From Nanobdellota archaeon (lineage in GTDB: Archaea; Nanobdellota; Nanobdellia; SCGC-AAA011-G17; JAFCDX01): a stretch of DNA of 56,583 bases. Shown piece by piece: positions 50,841-56,583 of this stretch (the first letter of the stretch is position 1; each line of letters begins with the position of its first letter). A program made the translations under genes and the position numbers. The stretch lies in contig JBFMDT010000001.1 of assembly GCA_040753775.1 (NCBI GenBank), positions 1 through 56,583 of the forward strand, written 5' to 3'. The notes under the pieces are model-generated. The model was not told the DNA's origin, made no database searches, and saw nothing but the letters and a program-made list of their open reading frames with translations.

Positions 50841-51590
50841 CTAAATAAGCTTTTCAGACAGGTTGTATTTATTAATCTTTATTTTTGCAGAATTAAGGTA
50901 CTTTTGTGTTCCCTGTAATTTTATCGCTATGCTGTCTGCAATCACCTCTTCCTTATTTAACTCTTCATTAAATACAGTGAAGTTGGAGAACGGGGAAAAT
51001 CTAATTAAAAATTTTGATAGTTTAAGCATGGATGAGCTGTTTTTTATATGGCTTAACTCATGCAGCAATACAGCTTCAAGCTCCTTTTTTGTTAATAGAT
51101 TTGTCAATCCAGCTGAAAGAAATACCATATTTTTTGTTGAGAATGCCAATGGTTTAGCTAAATTAATAAGATACAGTTTTGGCATGCTTATCTTCAATCT
51201 TTTAGCATATTTTTTGATAGTTTCATTTATTACATTATTTTTAATTTCTTTTGCCTTTTTTTGGTAGAGCTTTGGAATTATAAGATATCCGAGAATCATC
51301 ACGCCAATCATACTTGCTATTGCTCCGTATATTATAATTTTTGTCAGGGCTATACTACAATGATAAATAAAGCCATTAAGCAGACCCATATCACAGGACA
51401 AACTAAACGCAAAGAATATTAATGGAAAAAACAACAAAAACAAATGCAGATAGGTCAGGAGTATTTTGTTCTTTATGCTTTTTGTTTTCCTAATTTTTGC
51501 GAATACAACCACTGCAAGCGAAAGAGATATTACAAATGTCACTAATTTGGATGGTTCGCTGAAAAATGTTATTATCGATTGGACTAGCAT
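50841..51590 (-). CDS. Membrane zinc metallopeptidase (M56 BlaR1-like / M48), no extracellular sensor domain
   Basis: Three TM segments, ELEAVLLHELSH, EVIAD; coupled to a BlaI-like gene. Confidence 0.88.
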   Translation of the reverse strand: MLVQSIITFFSEPSKLVTFVISLSLAVVVFAKIRKTKSIKNKILLTYLHLFLLFFPLIFFAFSLSCDMGLLNGFIYHCSIALTKIIIYGAIASMIGVMILGYLIIPKLYQKKAKEIKNNVINETIKKYAKRLKISMPKLYLINLAKPLAFSTKNMVFLSAGLTNLLTKKELEAVLLHELSHIKNSSSMLKLSKFLIRFSPFSNFTVFNEELNKEEVIADSIAIKLQGTQKYLNSAKIKINKYNLSEKLI

Positions 51591-51592
51591 TT

Positions 51593-51946
51593 TTATCTCC
51601 TTTTTTCCTGGAACCTTTCATTAAAATAGCTTACTGCCTTTGAGCCAAACCTTTCTATCAGCTTGTTAACTGTTGTTTCTATTATTGATTTTTCAAAGCC
51701 ATCCTTATCCTGCTTTGGAGAATAAATATATCTTATCCCGCCGCGAGCAGTTTCTATCTTCCTGTTGACAATATTTTTTACATATAACCTGTCAAGTATC
51801 ACAGCTACAGAGCATAAGGCAACCTTTCTCCTTTTTTGTAGTATACTGTATATTTCCCTGACTTTCATCGCTTTTTTAGCCCATAATATATTCAAGACAT
51901 CCTTTTCCAATGGGCTTAAGGAATCCAAGTTTTTTATTTTTTTCAT
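51593..51946 (-). CDS. BlaI/MecI/CopY-family transcriptional repressor
   Basis: LSPLEKDVLNILW, VREIY, VAVILDRLYVKNIVNR, YIYSP. Confidence 0.92.
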   Translation of the reverse strand: MKKIKNLDSLSPLEKDVLNILWAKKAMKVREIYSILQKRRKVALCSVAVILDRLYVKNIVNRKIETARGGIRYIYSPKQDKDGFEKSIIETTVNKLIERFGSKAVSYFNERFQEKRR

Positions 51947-51992
51947 TGTTTGTGCTTTAATTACAACATACTGTTCACTGCAATTTAAATAT

Positions 51993-52009
51993 TTTACTAT
52001 TTTTGTAAA
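51993..52009. promoter_or_regulatory. Operator copy 1, TTTAC-N7-GTAAA
   Basis: TTTACTATTTTTGTAAA in the divergent promoter region. Confidence 0.7.
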
Positions 52010-52046
52010 GCTTTCCAAAAATACAAAGGTTTATATACTAGTTTGT

Positions 52047-52063
52047 TTTACAAAAAATGTAAA
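52047..52063. promoter_or_regulatory. Operator copy 2, TTTAC-N7-GTAAA
   Basis: TTTACAAAAAATGTAAA, starting 17 nt after the first base of TATA TTTATATA (52030). Confidence 0.75.
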
Positions 52064-53791: not shown

Positions 53792-54840
53792 GAAAAAAGA
53801 GAAGGTATTATGATATAAAGTTTATTCTTGTAATTGCTTTGGCTATCATTGTTTTGGTGAATTTAATTTTAACATTCAATATAACACCTAAAGAAAAGAG
53901 CATAAAAATAAAAATTATAAATGATTTAAATTGCAAGGAATGCTTTAATCTTGCAAATGCTGTTGACTTCAAGGATGTAAATGTCAAAAAACAGGAGATT
54001 GTTGATTACAGTTCAAGTGAAGGGAAAAAATTAATTGAAAAGTATAATCTTTCTTTTATTCCAAGTATTGTAATTACAGGGGACATTGAAGGAGTAAACT
54101 TAGATGAATTTGAGAAGATAGAGGACTATTTAGTTTTGACAAAGGCCTTCCCGCCATACAGAGAACTAAGCAGCGGGAGCATACGCGGATTAGTTTCCCT
54201 TACTTATATTAATGTCAGTTGCAAAAAATGTGCATCTGTTTATTCTTTAGTAAATGACCTCAAGCAATACGGGATTAAATTTGCAAGGGAAAGTGTTCTT
54301 GATTACAAAAGCACAGAAGGACAAGAGCTCATAGATAAATATGGCTTAACAAAGGTTCCAACAATAATACTTGACAGCGAAGCTGGAGTTTACGACATTA
54401 TAAAGACAAGCTGGAAAAGTATAGGAAGGACAAGCAATGGGGTATATGTCCTTAATGCATTTCCACCATATTTTGACCTTGCAGAGGATACTGTTAAGGG
54501 ATTGGTGGATGTTACATATGTTGAGGATAAGGAATGCAATAGCTGTTATAATGTAAGCCTGCACAAACAGGTCTTGAATGGGTTTGGAGTTGTAGTAAAT
54601 GACGAAAGAGAAGTTGATATAAATGAAGAGGCTGGAAGAGACTTGCTGCTTAAATACGATATTACATTAGTACCTACAATAATTTTAAGCAAGGATGCAG
54701 ATGAGTATGCAAGGTTGAAGTCAGTATGGCCGCAGGTAGGGACTATAGAGGATGATGGAGCTTATGTTTTCAGGAAGGTTGATATTATGGGAACGTATAA
54801 GGATTTAGGCGAGGACAAGGTAATTAACATAACAAAATGA
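53788..54840 (+). CDS. Exported protein with three thioredoxin-like CxxC repeats
   Basis: CKEC, CKKC and CNSC, each followed by an EGK.LI.KY....(I/V)P.I-type motif. Confidence 0.82.
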   Translation: MRKKRRYYDIKFILVIALAIIVLVNLILTFNITPKEKSIKIKIINDLNCKECFNLANAVDFKDVNVKKQEIVDYSSSEGKKLIEKYNLSFIPSIVITGDIEGVNLDEFEKIEDYLVLTKAFPPYRELSSGSIRGLVSLTYINVSCKKCASVYSLVNDLKQYGIKFARESVLDYKSTEGQELIDKYGLTKVPTIILDSEAGVYDIIKTSWKSIGRTSNGVYVLNAFPPYFDLAEDTVKGLVDVTYVEDKECNSCYNVSLHKQVLNGFGVVVNDEREVDINEEAGRDLLLKYDITLVPTIILSKDADEYARLKSVWPQVGTIEDDGAYVFRKVDIMGTYKDLGEDKVINITK

Positions 54841-55568
54841 TTCCTTATCAAACGTTTCTCATGATTAATCTAGGATTTTTCAACATATACACCTGGGGCT
54901 TGTTTGTTGCCATTGGATTTTTAGTTGGAATATTTCTGGCTATTAAAGAAGCAAGGAAAAGAAAAATAAAAGTTAAGGAAATTTATGATTTAAGCTTTTA
55001 CATTATTTTAGGCGGGATTGTTGGCGGAAGAATTGGTTATATCCCAACACATTTAAATGAGTTCAGGGATTTTTTGGAAGTATTTAAGGTATGGCATGGT
55101 GGAATGTCATTTTTTGGAGGATTTGTTTTTGCGGCTCTGTTCGCTTACTTTTATATTAAAAAACATAAATTAAATTTTTGGAAATATGCTGATGTATTTG
55201 CTTTACCTTTGATTATAGGACATGCTATAGCAAGAGTTGGTTGTTATCTAGTTGGTGAGCATCTTGGAAGCCCAACAAATTTGCCATGGGGGATATTTTT
55301 TGAAGGGGCCATAAGACACCCAATACCAGCATATGAGTTTATAGCTTTAATATTCATTGCACTAACATTAATTTACATAAAAAGATTCAAATTAAAAGAT
55401 GGCATTTTAATAAGTTCAGCTGTTGTTATGTATTCCATAATAAGGTTCTTTTTGACATTCTTGAGAGTAGATGACCCGACATTCTTTGGATTGACAGGAA
55501 GCCAGTATGTTTCCATATTATTGGTTGTTATCTTTGGCTCTTTCATATTTAAGAGATTGAAGGGATAA
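54837..55568 (+). CDS. lgt: Prolipoprotein diacylglyceryl transferase homologue
   Basis: GGRIGY, WHGGMSFFGG, ARVGC, LPWG, RHP..AYE, YSIIRF..TFLR. Confidence 0.88.
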   Translation: MIPYQTFLMINLGFFNIYTWGLFVAIGFLVGIFLAIKEARKRKIKVKEIYDLSFYIILGGIVGGRIGYIPTHLNEFRDFLEVFKVWHGGMSFFGGFVFAALFAYFYIKKHKLNFWKYADVFALPLIIGHAIARVGCYLVGEHLGSPTNLPWGIFFEGAIRHPIPAYEFIALIFIALTLIYIKRFKLKDGILISSAVVMYSIIRFFLTFLRVDDPTFFGLTGSQYVSILLVVIFGSFIFKRLKG

Positions 55569-55586
55569 GTTTAAATACTAGTCAGT

Positions 55587-55603
55587 TTTACATTTTTTGT
55601 AAA
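55587..55603. promoter_or_regulatory. Operator copy 3, TTTAC-N7-GTAAA
   Basis: TTTACATTTTTTGTAAA, starting 17 nt after the first base of TATA TTTAAATA (55570), same spacing as copy 2. Confidence 0.75.
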
Positions 55604-55614
55604 GCTTTAGCAAA

Positions 55615-56583
55615 ATGAACATAGAAAACATAAGAAAGGATTTTCCTGTATTGCAAAAGAAGAGCAATGGAAAGCCAGTTATATATTTTGATAATGCATG
55701 CGTTTCCTTAAGGCCGGTGCAGGTTATCGAGGCTATGAACGAATATTACAAGGAATATCCTGCGTGCGTAAGCAGAAGCGTACACAAGCTTGGAGCAAAG
55801 GCAACAGAAAAGTACAATGAAGCAAGAAGAACAATAGCTAAATTCATCAATGCAGGGGAAAATGAAGTTATTTTTACAAGAAACACTACTGAAGGAATCA
55901 ATTTAATAGCAAATTCCCTTGGTCTGAAGAAAGATGATGCTGTTGTAACAAGCGACAAGGAGCACAATTCAAACTTGTTACCATGGCAGATTCTATCACA
56001 AAGAACAGGGATAAAACACAAAATATGCAGGACAAATGATGATGGGACATTTAATATAGAAAATTTTACAAGGGAAGTTAGAGGTGCAAGGCTTGTTTCT
56101 GTTGTTCATGCCTCAAATCTAGATGGTTATACAAATCCAGTTGAGGAGATAACCAAGACAAGCCATGAGAATAATGCTTTAGTATTGCTTGATGCTGCCC
56201 AGTCAACTCCTCATAAAAAGATTGATGTTAAAAAATTGGACGTTGATTTCCTGGCATTTTCAGGGCACAAGATGCTAGGGCCATCAGGCATTGGTATATT
56301 GTACGGGAAGGCCAAATTATTAAGGAAGTTGAAGCATTTTATTGTTGGTGGGGATACTGTTGAGGACAGCACTTATACAACAGCTGACTATCTAGACATA
56401 CCAGAAAAATTTGAAGCAGGCTTGCAGAATTATGCTGGAGCAATCGGATTAAGCGCTGCTGTAAATTACTTAAGTAAAATAGGATTAGACAACATTGCAG
56501 AGCATGAAAATGAATTAAATAAATACATAACAAAAGAAATAGAGGATTTTGCAGAGATCTTAGGTCCAGAAGCAGGGCTAAGA
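55615..56583 (+). CDS. sufS: SufS/CsdA-type cysteine desulfurase, truncated by the window end (not in ORF track)
   Basis: MNIENIRKDFPVL, YFDNAC, FTRNTTEGIN, EHNSN, DAAQS, FSGHKMLGPSGIG, FEAG. Confidence 0.9.
   Translation, partial: MNIENIRKDFPVLQKKSNGKPVIYFDNACVSLRPVQVIEAMNEYYKEYPACVSRSVHKLGAKATEKYNEARRTIAKFINAGENEVIFTRNTTEGINLIANSLGLKKDDAVVTSDKEHNSNLLPWQILSQRTGIKHKICRTNDDGTFNIENFTREVRGARLVSVVHASNLDGYTNPVEEITKTSHENNALVLLDAAQSTPHKKIDVKKLDVDFLAFSGHKMLGPSGIGILYGKAKLLRKLKHFIVGGDTVEDSTYTTADYLDIPEKFEAGLQNYAGAIGLSAAVNYLSKIGLDNIAEHENELNKYITKEIEDFAEILGPEAGLR

Follow-up and report, generated by a model that had tools for sequence, protein, structure and literature searches.

The window analysed here, 56,583 nucleotides of contig JBFMDT010000001.1 from a Nanobdellota archaeon, carries near its end a gene pair for a BlaI/MecI/CopY-family repressor and a membrane zinc peptidase, divergent from a seven-gene operon and followed by a cysteine desulfurase gene with the same operator. 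The locus is real and conserved, and its arrangement is more than chance. Its regulatory half is an archaeal variant of a known switch, and the effector half is made up mostly of families not described before; their products are predicted from their sequences to be extracytoplasmic thiol/metal proteins, as a first-pass annotation of this DNA had proposed. The pair is probably an archaeal regulated-proteolysis switch of the BlaI/BlaR type that works like the copper-activated PetR/PetP system, with copper or thiol stress as the favoured signal.

The window covers the opening 56.6 kb of a contig of 128.9 kb in an assembly of 698,496 bases in 28 contigs, with 35% G+C and 82% completeness. An archaeal signal recognition particle RNA in the window (127.5 bits) identifies it as archaeal, and the host is taken to be a DPANN archaeon because close protein relatives are labelled Woesearchaeota, Pacearchaeota, Nanoarchaeia, and Aenigmatarchaeota. 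Open reading frame (ORF) and family searches recovered every one of the ten genes of the locus as open frames at the positions and with the motifs claimed in the first-pass annotation. Below, G-numbers designate genomes and L-numbers loci of relatives; G000 and L001 are the present genome, and C1 is its first contig.

Repressor and membrane peptidase

The repressor gene (51593–51946, minus strand; ORF to 52018) encodes a winged-helix protein of 117 residues. It matches Penicillinase_R (PF03965) with an E-value of 2.1e-14 and 54.3 bits against a cut-off of 22.6, which places it in the winged-helix family, and among PDB sequences it matches Staphylococcus aureus BlaI (1sd4, E 2.6e-7) and Mycobacterium tuberculosis BlaI (2g9w, E 1e-4), aligning with BlaI and MecI over the winged helix. 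Alignment with 23 orthologs identifies the true start as the ATG at 51946 rather than the upstream TTG; the protein is 52–67% identical to 22 of these and 41% identical to the 23rd, and its short C-terminal part closes with a conserved FG-x2-A-x2-YF-x-[ED]-RF. The C-terminal metal-binding cysteine motif of CopY is absent, the 28 orthologs examined having zero to two unconserved cysteines and none in the C-terminal tail. For lack of this motif, a CopY-like role in which the repressor itself senses metal is rejected, and a partner is needed for sensing.

The adjoining gene (50841–51590, minus strand) encodes a BlaR1/PetP-like membrane zinc peptidase of the M48/M56 type with three transmembrane (TM) helices, as characterized by Pfam and NCBIfam searches, alignment, AlphaFold2 (AF2) modeling, and Foldseek. 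It contains a HELSH motif and scores 41.5 bits for Peptidase_M48 (cut-off 20.3), and H177, E178, H181, and E215, that is, the HExxH motif and the downstream glutamate of a gluzincin, are kept in 73 of 73 sequences. The AF2 model, with a predicted local distance difference test score (pLDDT) of 88.9, has three long helices followed by a mixed domain, and is matched in Foldseek by ZMPSTE24/Ste24 (E 1.5e-4), BlaR1 (8exp_A, E 2.8e-4), and HtpX (E 6.3e-4). The protein ends at residue 249, inside the protease domain, and no penicillin-binding sensor domain was matched in Pfam; sensing of beta-lactams is rejected, since the Pfam search found neither such a domain nor a lactamase.

The first-pass annotation called this peptidase sensor-less. 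A C-terminal sensor domain is indeed missing, but the loop between TM2 and TM3 contains two cysteines, C66 and C78, that are invariant in all 73 sequences and constitute a candidate sensor. The positive-inside rule applied to the sequence suggests that the N-terminus and the TM2–TM3 loop lie outside and that the K/R-rich stretches after helices 1 and 3 are cytoplasmic. A further N-terminal CxxC occurs in 26 of the 73 sequences.

Conservation of the gene pair and its neighborhood

Opposite the pair, seven plus-strand genes extend from 52069 to 55568, each overlapping the next or separated from it by 3 nucleotides, and the tight coupling noted earlier is thus correct. In order, they encode a methionine-rich lipobox protein, a protein with CEYCC and CGCAH motifs (the CEYCC protein), a small protein ending in GMVGGC, a lipoprotein with a GGGC motif, a monothiol CxxT thioredoxin-like protein, a triple thioredoxin-like protein, and a homologue of the prolipoprotein diacylglyceryl transferase Lgt.

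Two sets of relatives were compared. The first comprises full-length peptidase orthologs (E ≤ 1e-28, 32–42% identity), which the other 400 genomes sampled from the phylum contain at 28 places, spread over 27 genomes; the remaining matches of the peptidase search, whose tally of 359 of 401 genomes includes the unpublished G244, G322, G333, G360, and G396, are HtpX-like. The second was obtained with a BlaI alignment against one genome per species (185,579 species) and comprises the best 80 of 121 confirmed loci. The two sets partly overlap and the genomes are related, so that counts are descriptive and not independent. In the first set synteny was scored within about 9 kb of the pair; families were clustered from ORFs of at least 55 residues with matches covering half of the shorter protein and were kept when present in at least four loci, rows from an unrelated P-type ATPase query were dropped, and CopA was counted by tblastn. 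In the second set ORFs of at least 40 residues within ±7 kb were assigned to the best of the family hidden Markov models at E < 1e-5. All loci analysed in detail come from genomes other than the six unpublished ones.

The blaI gene adjoins the peptidase gene in 28 of 28 ortholog loci and in 72 of the best 80, and in the other eight the contig ends less than 700 nucleotides after blaI. Neighbors recur with similar regularity. In the first set the CEYCC protein and the triple thioredoxin are each found in 20 of 28 loci, the small MVGGC protein in 19, CcdA/DsbD_TM and a cupredoxin lipoprotein each in 15, the CxxT thioredoxin in 12, Lgt in 10, CopA in five, DsbA in four, and SufS in one. Among the best 80 loci of the second set the counts are 59 for CEYCC, 54 for the triple thioredoxin, 53 for the small protein, 47 for CcdA, 36 for a family designated f223, 28 for the CxxT thioredoxin, 23 for the cupredoxin, 15 for the membrane protein mem164, 12 for Lgt, six for DsbA, and one each for SufS and CopA. 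The usual order places the peptidase and blaI genes on one strand and, divergent from them, genes for CEYCC, the small protein, in some loci the CxxT thioredoxin, and the triple thioredoxin, with a Met/His lipoprotein, CcdA, or f223 optionally ahead of CEYCC and cupredoxin, CcdA, or Lgt optionally at the end. In locus L088, from another family of the class, CEYCC is likewise followed by the small protein, the GGGC lipoprotein, and the two thioredoxins (CxxT, then triple), with Lgt coming last behind an intervening membrane protein. All 27 genomes with peptidase orthologs also have a CEYCC match. The gene-neighborhood search proposed with the first-pass annotation, which had named a lack of co-occurrence as counter-evidence, thus shows that the genes do co-occur in related DPANN genomes, and the possibility of a loose neighborhood rather than a real module is rejected by the synteny in both sets.

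CcdA and the cupredoxin, common in relatives, are missing from the present locus. The f223 family (for example L082:5529–6251) consists of unnamed membrane proteins of about 223 residues with a His/Glu-rich N-terminal part, and an unnamed Met/His-rich lipoprotein family (L084:7413–8204) occurs in 14 of the 80 loci; neither was found in this genome. Locus L115 has the full module (BlaI, peptidase, CEYCC, small protein, and both thioredoxins) in a record labelled as a bacterial (Binatia) bin, and several other loci are labelled Methanosarcinales; these labels are likely binning or labelling artefacts, not transfers.

Operators and promoters

The inverted repeat TTTACA-N5-TGTAAA occurs exactly twice in the 698,496-base genome, at 52047 and 55587, as against a mean of 0.45 in 20 mononucleotide shuffles. 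Each copy follows a TATA-like octamer after 9 nucleotides and precedes a start codon by 5 or 11. The promoter of the seven-gene operon (52030–52063, plus strand) consists of the TATA-like TTTATATA (52030–52037), 9 nucleotides, the operator TTTACAAAAAATGTAAA (52047–52063), and 5 nucleotides before the ATG, and that of the desulfurase (SufS) unit (55570–55603, plus strand) of TTTAAATA (55570–55577), 9 nucleotides, the operator TTTACATTTTTTGTAAA (55587–55603), and 11 nucleotides before the ATG. The two promoters are alike over about 34 nucleotides except for an inverted A5/T5 spacer, and the earlier claim that the SufS gene carries the operator of the seven-gene operon holds. A third copy with one mismatch, TTTACTATTTTTGTAAA (51993–52009), lies in the divergent region between blaI and the seven-gene operon, which is 122 nucleotides long given the repressor start at 51946; it abuts another TATA-like box, TTTAAATA (51984–51991), and this element (51984–52009) is a candidate autoregulatory site of the blaI-peptidase operon. 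Inverted repeats with TACA/TGTA-like half-sites near the repressor's own and target promoters are thus present and conserved, and are candidate binding sites on sequence grounds.

The operator recurs in relatives. A TACA-N5-TGTA repeat behind a TATA-like box is found ahead of the CEYCC orthologs in L082, L083, L088, L097, L098, L099, and L105, and operators also lie ahead of mem164 in L084, ahead of DsbA in L087, and in L088 ahead of a Cys165::DsbA-SufS unit (L088:3575) and of a TlpA-like/CcdA pair. Upstream of blaI itself, an operator with at most one mismatch is present in 26 of the 28 loci (background 0.41 per kb), and an exact TTACR-N5-YGTAA in 64 of the 80 (background 0.133 per kb, equivalent to some 0.04 chance sites in each scanned region). 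The shared operator described in the first-pass annotation thus recurs both ahead of orthologous operons and ahead of blaI.

The CEYCC protein and the MVGGC tail

The CEYCC protein (52348–52986, plus strand) has an N-terminal anchor, the CEYCC/CGCAH domain, and the tail GMVGGC. The family has a match in 91 of the 401 genomes sampled from the phylum and 2022 homologs in a large protein collection, none of which is named or has a Pfam domain. An alignment of 31 sequences shows invariant P50, G52, P54, Y57, R99, C109, C112, C113, C127, C129, H131, W162, and P168. The AF2 model has a pLDDT of 90.7, which is still about 80 across the tail, and its best structural match in an exhaustive VIA-align search is the periplasmic domain of CcmH (2hl7_A, Z 6.3, root mean square deviation 2.9, 76 of 82 residues), which spans model residues 86–195; the runner-up has a Z of 4.0. 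In an Atlas structure search the only named row was a CcmH cluster (TM-score 0.31/0.56, the 0.56 by target), whereas an Atlas search by features returned only unnamed clusters, and Pfam gave no match to the CcmH family PF03918 at E ≤ 0.1. As modeled, the domain resembles CcmH in being a helical bundle with a CxxC directly after the first helix; it differs from CcmH in its three further invariant cysteines and histidine, an extra N-terminal subdomain, the MVGGC tail, and the lack of heme machinery.

CcmH as the best structural match, together with the CcdA and TlpA/ResA-like proteins of relatives, might suggest that the module is a remnant of the thiol pathway of cytochrome c maturation, with CcdA, CcmG-like, and CcmH-like parts. 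The heme-handling family PF01578, however, was found in none of five module-carrying genomes, on which ground this origin is rejected, and DPANN archaea are described in the accessible text of a single-cell genome study as being without electron transport chains (PMC7507113); we regard such a descent as extremely improbable.

The tail is nearly constant. The sequence [MQ]VGGC ends 48 of 61 CEYCC ORFs, and [MQ]VG[GS]C ends 53 of 53 small proteins. The small protein of the window (52980–53186, plus strand; 68 residues) has an N-terminal TM helix, a Gly/Ser linker, and the C-terminal GMVGGC, of which V65, G66, G67, and C68 are invariant in 23 of 23 aligned sequences, and it resembles the CEYCC protein minus the globular part. 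Complex prediction with CEYCC residues 41–200 and small-protein residues 30–68 gave weak support (median score 0.40 versus 0.00 for the best of three controls), the runs agreeing in at least 92% of contacts with a partner pLDDT of 41–43. The mark applied is reached by 58 of 80 solved complexes and two of 110 mismatched pairs, and at 0.60 or below by only seven of the 80 solved complexes along with both mismatches; docking of the tail on the CEYCC domain, as modeled, is a lead only.

Around the 20 best CEYCC matches neither BlaI (0 of 20) nor the peptidase (0 of 20) is found, whereas full-length CopA lies no more than about 9 kb from 10 (with HMA domains only in two more), PadR-TRASH near six, mem164 near five, and Lgt near one. 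BlaI is absent there because these copies form a CopA-linked subfamily, the BlaI-linked copies being more distant paralogs. The CEYCC protein of the window is 52–67% identical to the best-scoring copies, CopA-linked ones included, and at most 43% identical to 61 BlaI-linked copies. It therefore belongs with the CopA-linked subfamily, and this genome has put a copper-island type of CEYCC protein under a BlaI promoter. Fused CEYCC forms also exist (L033:14707–15945 and L104:10802–12019), with an N-terminal multi-helix membrane domain bearing CPVCQ and no MVGGC tail; for these fused forms, mem164, and the membrane proteins Cys165 and mem168 no Pfam family was found.

Thioredoxin-like proteins and lipoproteins

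The first-pass annotation assigned two proteins of the operon to the thioredoxin fold. For the anchored 353-residue protein (53779–54840, plus strand) this is upheld by a Thioredoxin_3 match (E 1.5e-8) and by three thioredoxin-like units whose CxxC motifs, C52/55, C148/151, and C253/256, are kept in 23, 25, and 25 of 25 sequences. For the anchored 143-residue protein (53360–53791, plus strand) only a match to Thioredoxin_4 below the cut-off was obtained (E 0.0059). Its C70, C85, Y87, T88, and C141 are kept in 13 of 13 sequences, and the monothiol motif W-C85-x-Y-T88 has CxxT in place of CxxC.

The Met-rich protein (52069–52344, plus strand) has a FAVAC lipobox, seven methionines in DMDDMNGVSGMHTADSSWGMMSMMG, and a C-terminal TM helix, which alone is weakly conserved, in two loci. 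The GGGC lipoprotein (53173–53379, plus strand) has a FIGAC lipobox and a GGGCGVS motif, and counterparts were recognized at L088:13510–13782 (by eye) and in L032. Pfam and NCBIfam searches found no family for the Met-rich, CEYCC, 68-residue, or GGGC proteins.

In relatives, cupredoxin lipoproteins (for example L082:14923–15330) carry the motif H...C-x3-C-G-x2-H-x2-M, whose C-x3-C-G-x2-H-x2-M spacing we take to be the CuA pattern, and match Cupredoxin_1 and COX2 (COX2 E 7.6e-6). These cupredoxins with a CuA-type pattern occur in 15 of 28 module loci; the host organisms are reported to be without oxygen reductases. They invite the view that the locus is a copper-utilization switch, in which the presence of copper would induce the cupredoxin lipoprotein, of the CuA or the blue type, and its assembly line, with the thioredoxins reducing the ligand cysteines and the CEYCC and MVGGC proteins delivering Cu(I), comparable to TlpA/Sco/PCuAC at CuA centres. 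The cupredoxin in or beside the operon in 15 of 28 and 23 of 80 loci, with its CuA-type motif and COX2 match, fits this view, as do an amicyanin-like lipoprotein in this genome (C1:66026–66382) and the derepression of a cupredoxin by PetRP in the accessible text of the preprint (bioRxiv 10.1101/2020.07.31.226407). The window operon, however, has no cupredoxin, none is within reach in about half of the loci, no oxidase partner is at hand, COX2 not having been found in the assembled 82% of this genome, and oxygen reductases are reported in 0 of 81 DPANN single-cell genomes in the accessible text of that study (PMC7507113). The adjoining copper exporter likewise points to detoxification, and a utilization switch is unlikely.

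Lgt and the C-terminal cysteine

The last gene of the operon (54837–55568, plus strand), whose start overlaps the preceding stop, encodes a full-length member of the Lgt family (PF01790, E 3.4e-52, 177.6 bits, model positions 3–235 of 240); for TIGR00544 it scores 111.1 against a cut-off of 118.9. Its signature region is ARVGCYLVGEHLG, compared with GRLANFINGELYG in L088. It had been regarded as the module's own lipid-attachment enzyme. It is not: it is the only PF01790 match in the genome, the family scores above cut-off in 338 of the 401 phylum genomes and in no archaeal control, and Lgt lies near the pair in only 10 of 28 loci. The tally becomes 332 of 395 without the six unpublished genomes (G243, G244, G322, G333, G360, and G396), all of which have an Lgt match. 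No signal peptidase II (Lsp) was found in this genome. A study of archaeal lipoproteins from 2025 states that Lgt homologs were until then unidentified in archaea (PMC12462473); the clear homologues in most genomes of this phylum are a by-product of the present analysis. They raise the question of which lipid such enzymes would use in an archaeal membrane.

The MVGGC end could itself be a C-terminal lipobox, in which case Lgt would lipidate the last cysteine, the CEYCC and small proteins would be tethered at both ends, and the operon would be a lipoprotein-maturation unit. VGGC does fit the lipobox [LVI][ASTVI][GAS]C as given in the accessible part of the lipoprotein paper (PMC12462473); finding Lgt no farther than about 9 kb away in 10 of 28 loci far exceeds what chance would give for one gene in about a thousand, and an ICMT/PEMT-like methyltransferase lies in the copper island downstream. 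Yet G106 (98% complete) and G189 (95%) retain GMVGGC with no Lgt match, which disfavors the idea; the tail is preceded by a hydrophilic Gly/Ser linker rather than a membrane helix, and ordinary N-terminal lipoboxes in the same operons already account for the linkage to Lgt. We consider a C-terminal lipobox very unlikely.

SufS and the downstream copper island

The SufS-type (type II) cysteine desulfurase gene (55615–56583, plus strand) is cut by the window end and at full length runs to 56811. Its product matches Aminotran_5 (E 6.5e-119) and scores 456.9 bits for TIGR01979 against a cut-off of 475.1. Its membership in the regulon, as proposed earlier, is suggested in this genome by the operator, but elsewhere it is a rare accessory, found in one of 28 and one of 80 other loci. 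SufS adjoins DsbA/Cys165 in G000, L039, and L088, and adjoins the BlaI pair in L150. A NifS-NifU pair at 10165–11978 of the window is likely the general Fe-S system, and no SufBD (SUFBD_core), SufE, or SufU was found in the assembled 82% of the genome; with NifS-NifU present and SufBD not found, the SufS behind the operator counts as a second desulfurase, one without partners.

After SufS follow DsbA (CPYC), the Cys-rich membrane protein Cys165, and three small membrane proteins with Cys motifs. Further on, a PadR regulator whose C-terminus bears a TRASH-like Cys motif is encoded in the opposite orientation; beyond it lie a flavin adenine dinucleotide (FAD) protein and an 817-residue CopA with two HMA domains, and then the ICMT/PEMT-like methyltransferase, a major facilitator superfamily (MFS) transporter, and two lipoproteins, one Cys-rich and one amicyanin-like. 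The island from PadR to the amicyanin-like lipoprotein occupies C1:59407–66382 (L001:4408–11383). PadR-TRASH, CopA, and the amicyanin-like lipoprotein lie 3–10 kb downstream, which makes the BlaI locus the upstream half of a roughly 16-kb copper island. The genome-wide operator scan found no BlaI operator at any gene of the downstream island. Cys165 (C1:57378–57875; L001:2379–2876) is a two-helix membrane protein with conserved Cys pairs that follows DsbA and is fused to it in L088:3713–4633. VKOR was not found in the assembled 82% of this genome, and Cys165 could be a DsbB/VKOR-like oxidase partner of DsbA.

Proposed mechanism and the nature of the signal

The genes identified, their synteny, the positions and conservation of the operators, and the invariant residues are the observations described above; from them we infer the following course of proteolysis, signaling, and effector chemistry. 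The 117-residue repressor would bind the inverted repeat TTACR-N5-YGTAA. At the seven-gene operon and the SufS unit the operator, 9 nucleotides behind the TATA box, would cover the presumed transcription start, so that bound repressor should keep the polymerase from being recruited; the third copy, abutting the TATA-like box of the repressor-peptidase operon, would provide autoregulation. The partner would be the three-helix membrane gluzincin with its catalytic domain facing the cytoplasm. Its only outward element would be the short TM2–TM3 loop, whose two cysteines may sense Cu(I), or thiol oxidation driven by copper or oxidants, and so trigger cleavage of the repressor. Derepression would then yield a surface thiol/copper set, namely the CEYCC domain, the MVGGC small protein, the monothiol and triple-CxxC thioredoxin-like proteins, and the Met/Cys-rich lipoproteins, which the Lgt of the operon would lipidate; the second promoter would add a further cysteine desulfurase together with DsbA and Cys-rich membrane proteins. 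Together these proteins may maintain or repair exported cysteines and, alongside the neighboring CopA island, pass copper on or sequester it. Tentatively, and with appreciably less assurance than the switch itself, it is possible that the CEYCC domain and small anchored proteins form an extracytoplasmic relay not described before, in which the flexible MVGGC arm carries Cu(I) or a mixed disulfide to or from a five-Cys/one-His centre on a CcmH-like scaffold, with the monothiol and triple thioredoxins and CcdA recharging it, all switched on by the first known archaeal regulated-proteolysis sensor reading the same chemistry through its outward Cys pair.

A cysteine pair is a classic redox switch, and copper catalyses thiol oxidation, so that readings based on copper and on thiols overlap. 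The switch might accordingly report surface thiol-disulfide (oxidative) stress and not copper: a C66/C78 disulfide would activate the peptidase, and a chain from CcdA through the thioredoxins to the CcmH-like CEYCC protein would repair exported cysteines. Besides the cysteine pair itself, most of the conserved members of the module are thiol oxidoreductases (the triple-CxxC protein in 20, CcdA in 15, the CxxT protein in 12, and DsbA in four of 28 loci, with a TlpA-like protein in L088), and CopA is near only five of 28 pairs. On the other side stand the CuA-type cupredoxin lipoproteins in 15 of 28 loci, the Met-rich and Met/His-rich lipoproteins present among module members, and the place of the window's CEYCC protein in the CopA-linked subfamily. 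In addition, the sole characterized domain-less relative with a known signal senses copper, as far as the accessible text of the preprint goes (bioRxiv 10.1101/2020.07.31.226407). A switch reporting thiol stress and not copper is a serious contender and nonetheless rather unlikely.

Several results weigh against a copper-activated switch of the BlaI/BlaR type with the effectors proposed here. The peptidase scores 30.4 for Peptidase_M56, just below the Pfam cut-off of 31, and in Foldseek resembles ZMPSTE24 and HtpX as closely as BlaR1. CopA is near just five of 28 pairs and one of 80 at ±7 kb, the sole Lgt of the genome sits in an operon that would be repressible, an unusual place for an enzyme of general function, and CcdA, which could supply reducing power, was not found in the assembled 82% of the genome. 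The likeness of the CEYCC domain to CcmH is weak: a Z of 6.3 is under the aligner's own level for a clear match, Foldseek of the model against the PDB gave nothing at E ≤ 0.001, a profile search of PDB sequences gave only a chance-level match (E 0.48), and hhalign against the N-domain of Escherichia coli CcmH was not significant (probability 1.6%), its sole stretch setting ISCEYCCG on LRCPKCQN so that the two CxxC coincide. Just two to three sites define the regulon in this genome, and the looser TTACR-N5-YGTAA is not enriched by count genome-wide (three seen versus 6.45 in shuffles). The case for the operator therefore rests on position, the flanking identity of the two promoters, and conservation in relatives.

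Comparison with known systems

The closest characterized system is PetRP of Synechocystis sp. PCC 6803, which in the accessible text of the preprint (bioRxiv 10.1101/2020.07.31.226407) consists of a BlaI/CopY-type repressor and an M48/M56 protease without a sensor domain. There, in extracts of the cyanobacterium and of E. coli alike, PetR is degraded only when PetP and copper are both present, the TM2–TM3 loop of PetP has two conserved methionines (M53/M58) proposed as copper ligands, the core site of PetR is GAC-N5-GTC, and the main target is plastocyanin. By that account, the present locus shares with PetRP a repressor that lacks the Cys motif of CopY and, next in order, an M48/M56 membrane protease with no penicillin-binding domain, two conserved soft-metal ligand residues in the TM2–TM3 loop (here C66 and C78, in 73 of 73 sequences, a mark of the domain-less type), an inverted-repeat operator with a 5-nucleotide spacer, and, in many relatives, a cupredoxin among the targets. 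It differs in that the loop residues are Cys here and Met in PetP, in having three predicted helices where PetP is predicted to have four, in half-sites of the form TTACR rather than GAC, and in a multi-gene thiol/metal envelope regulon in place of four genes. The archaeal host with its TATA/TFB promoter is a further difference, and copper dependence is here a proposal.

Similarity to BlaI/BlaR1 and MecI/MecR1 of S. aureus extends to a homologous repressor (1sd4, E 2.6e-7), the protease fold (8exp_A, E 2.8e-4), and the adjacent gene pair, and TACA/TGTA-type half-sites, a hallmark of the BlaI/MecI family, are shared as well. The penicillin-binding sensor domain of BlaR1 is missing, neither a beta-lactamase nor a penicillin-binding protein (PBP) is among the targets, and the C-terminal part of the repressor is shorter. 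CopY/TcrY are similar in their winged-helix family (TIGR02698 E 2.3e-8, far below cut-off) and copper context, but CopY binds metal through its own C-terminal Cys motif, absent here. In Scs and DsbC/DsbD of enterobacteria and in TlpA-Sco-PCuAC, a CcdA/DsbD-type electron importer and thioredoxin-fold proteins guard or prepare exported cysteines under copper; the present module differs from these in lacking sequence orthology beyond folds and any CEYCC or MVGGC counterpart there, and in its presumed control by repressor proteolysis.

Domain-less, atypical BlaIR systems are the majority of their family according to the accessible text of the study of CenI/CenR in Clostridioides difficile, in which about 6% of some 15,000 M56 proteins have a penicillin-binding domain and about 96% lie near a BlaI-like gene (PMC13492132). 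In that account, CenIR resembles the present pair as a domain-less BlaR-like protease with a BlaI-like repressor over envelope genes, and differs in being bacterial and in its unrelated regulon of a peptidoglycan hydrolase and an exported protein (PMC13492132). A literature search at the level of abstracts returned no report of such a switch in archaea, nor of the effector families. The earlier statement that no archaeal equivalent is characterized therefore stands within that search, but the regulatory design as such is known from PetRP, as far as its accessible text goes; new here are its occurrence in archaea, the loop with its cysteine pair, and the families of effectors.

Other features of the window

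Two tRNA genes, at 4493–4579 (87 nucleotides) and 28281–28375 (95 nucleotides), were found by Rfam and missed by ARAGORN; both probably contain introns.

Implications

If the proposed switch is real, signaling of the BlaI/BlaR type by repressor proteolysis would extend to archaea, and since the placement of the operators fits TATA/TFB promoters, archaeal repression by a bacterial-type switch would become testable. Sensing by domain-less BlaR-like proteases was left open by the PetP work (bioRxiv 10.1101/2020.07.31.226407) and raised by the CenIR work (PMC13492132), as far as the accessible texts go, and the invariant Cys pair found where PetP has Met would make this locus a clean test case. 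More than 2000 unnamed DPANN proteins and the near-universal MVGGC end would gain a genomic context and a testable chemistry. The locus would also inform the question of how host-dependent archaea, with reduced genomes and hardly any redox metabolism, protect their surface cysteines and handle copper.

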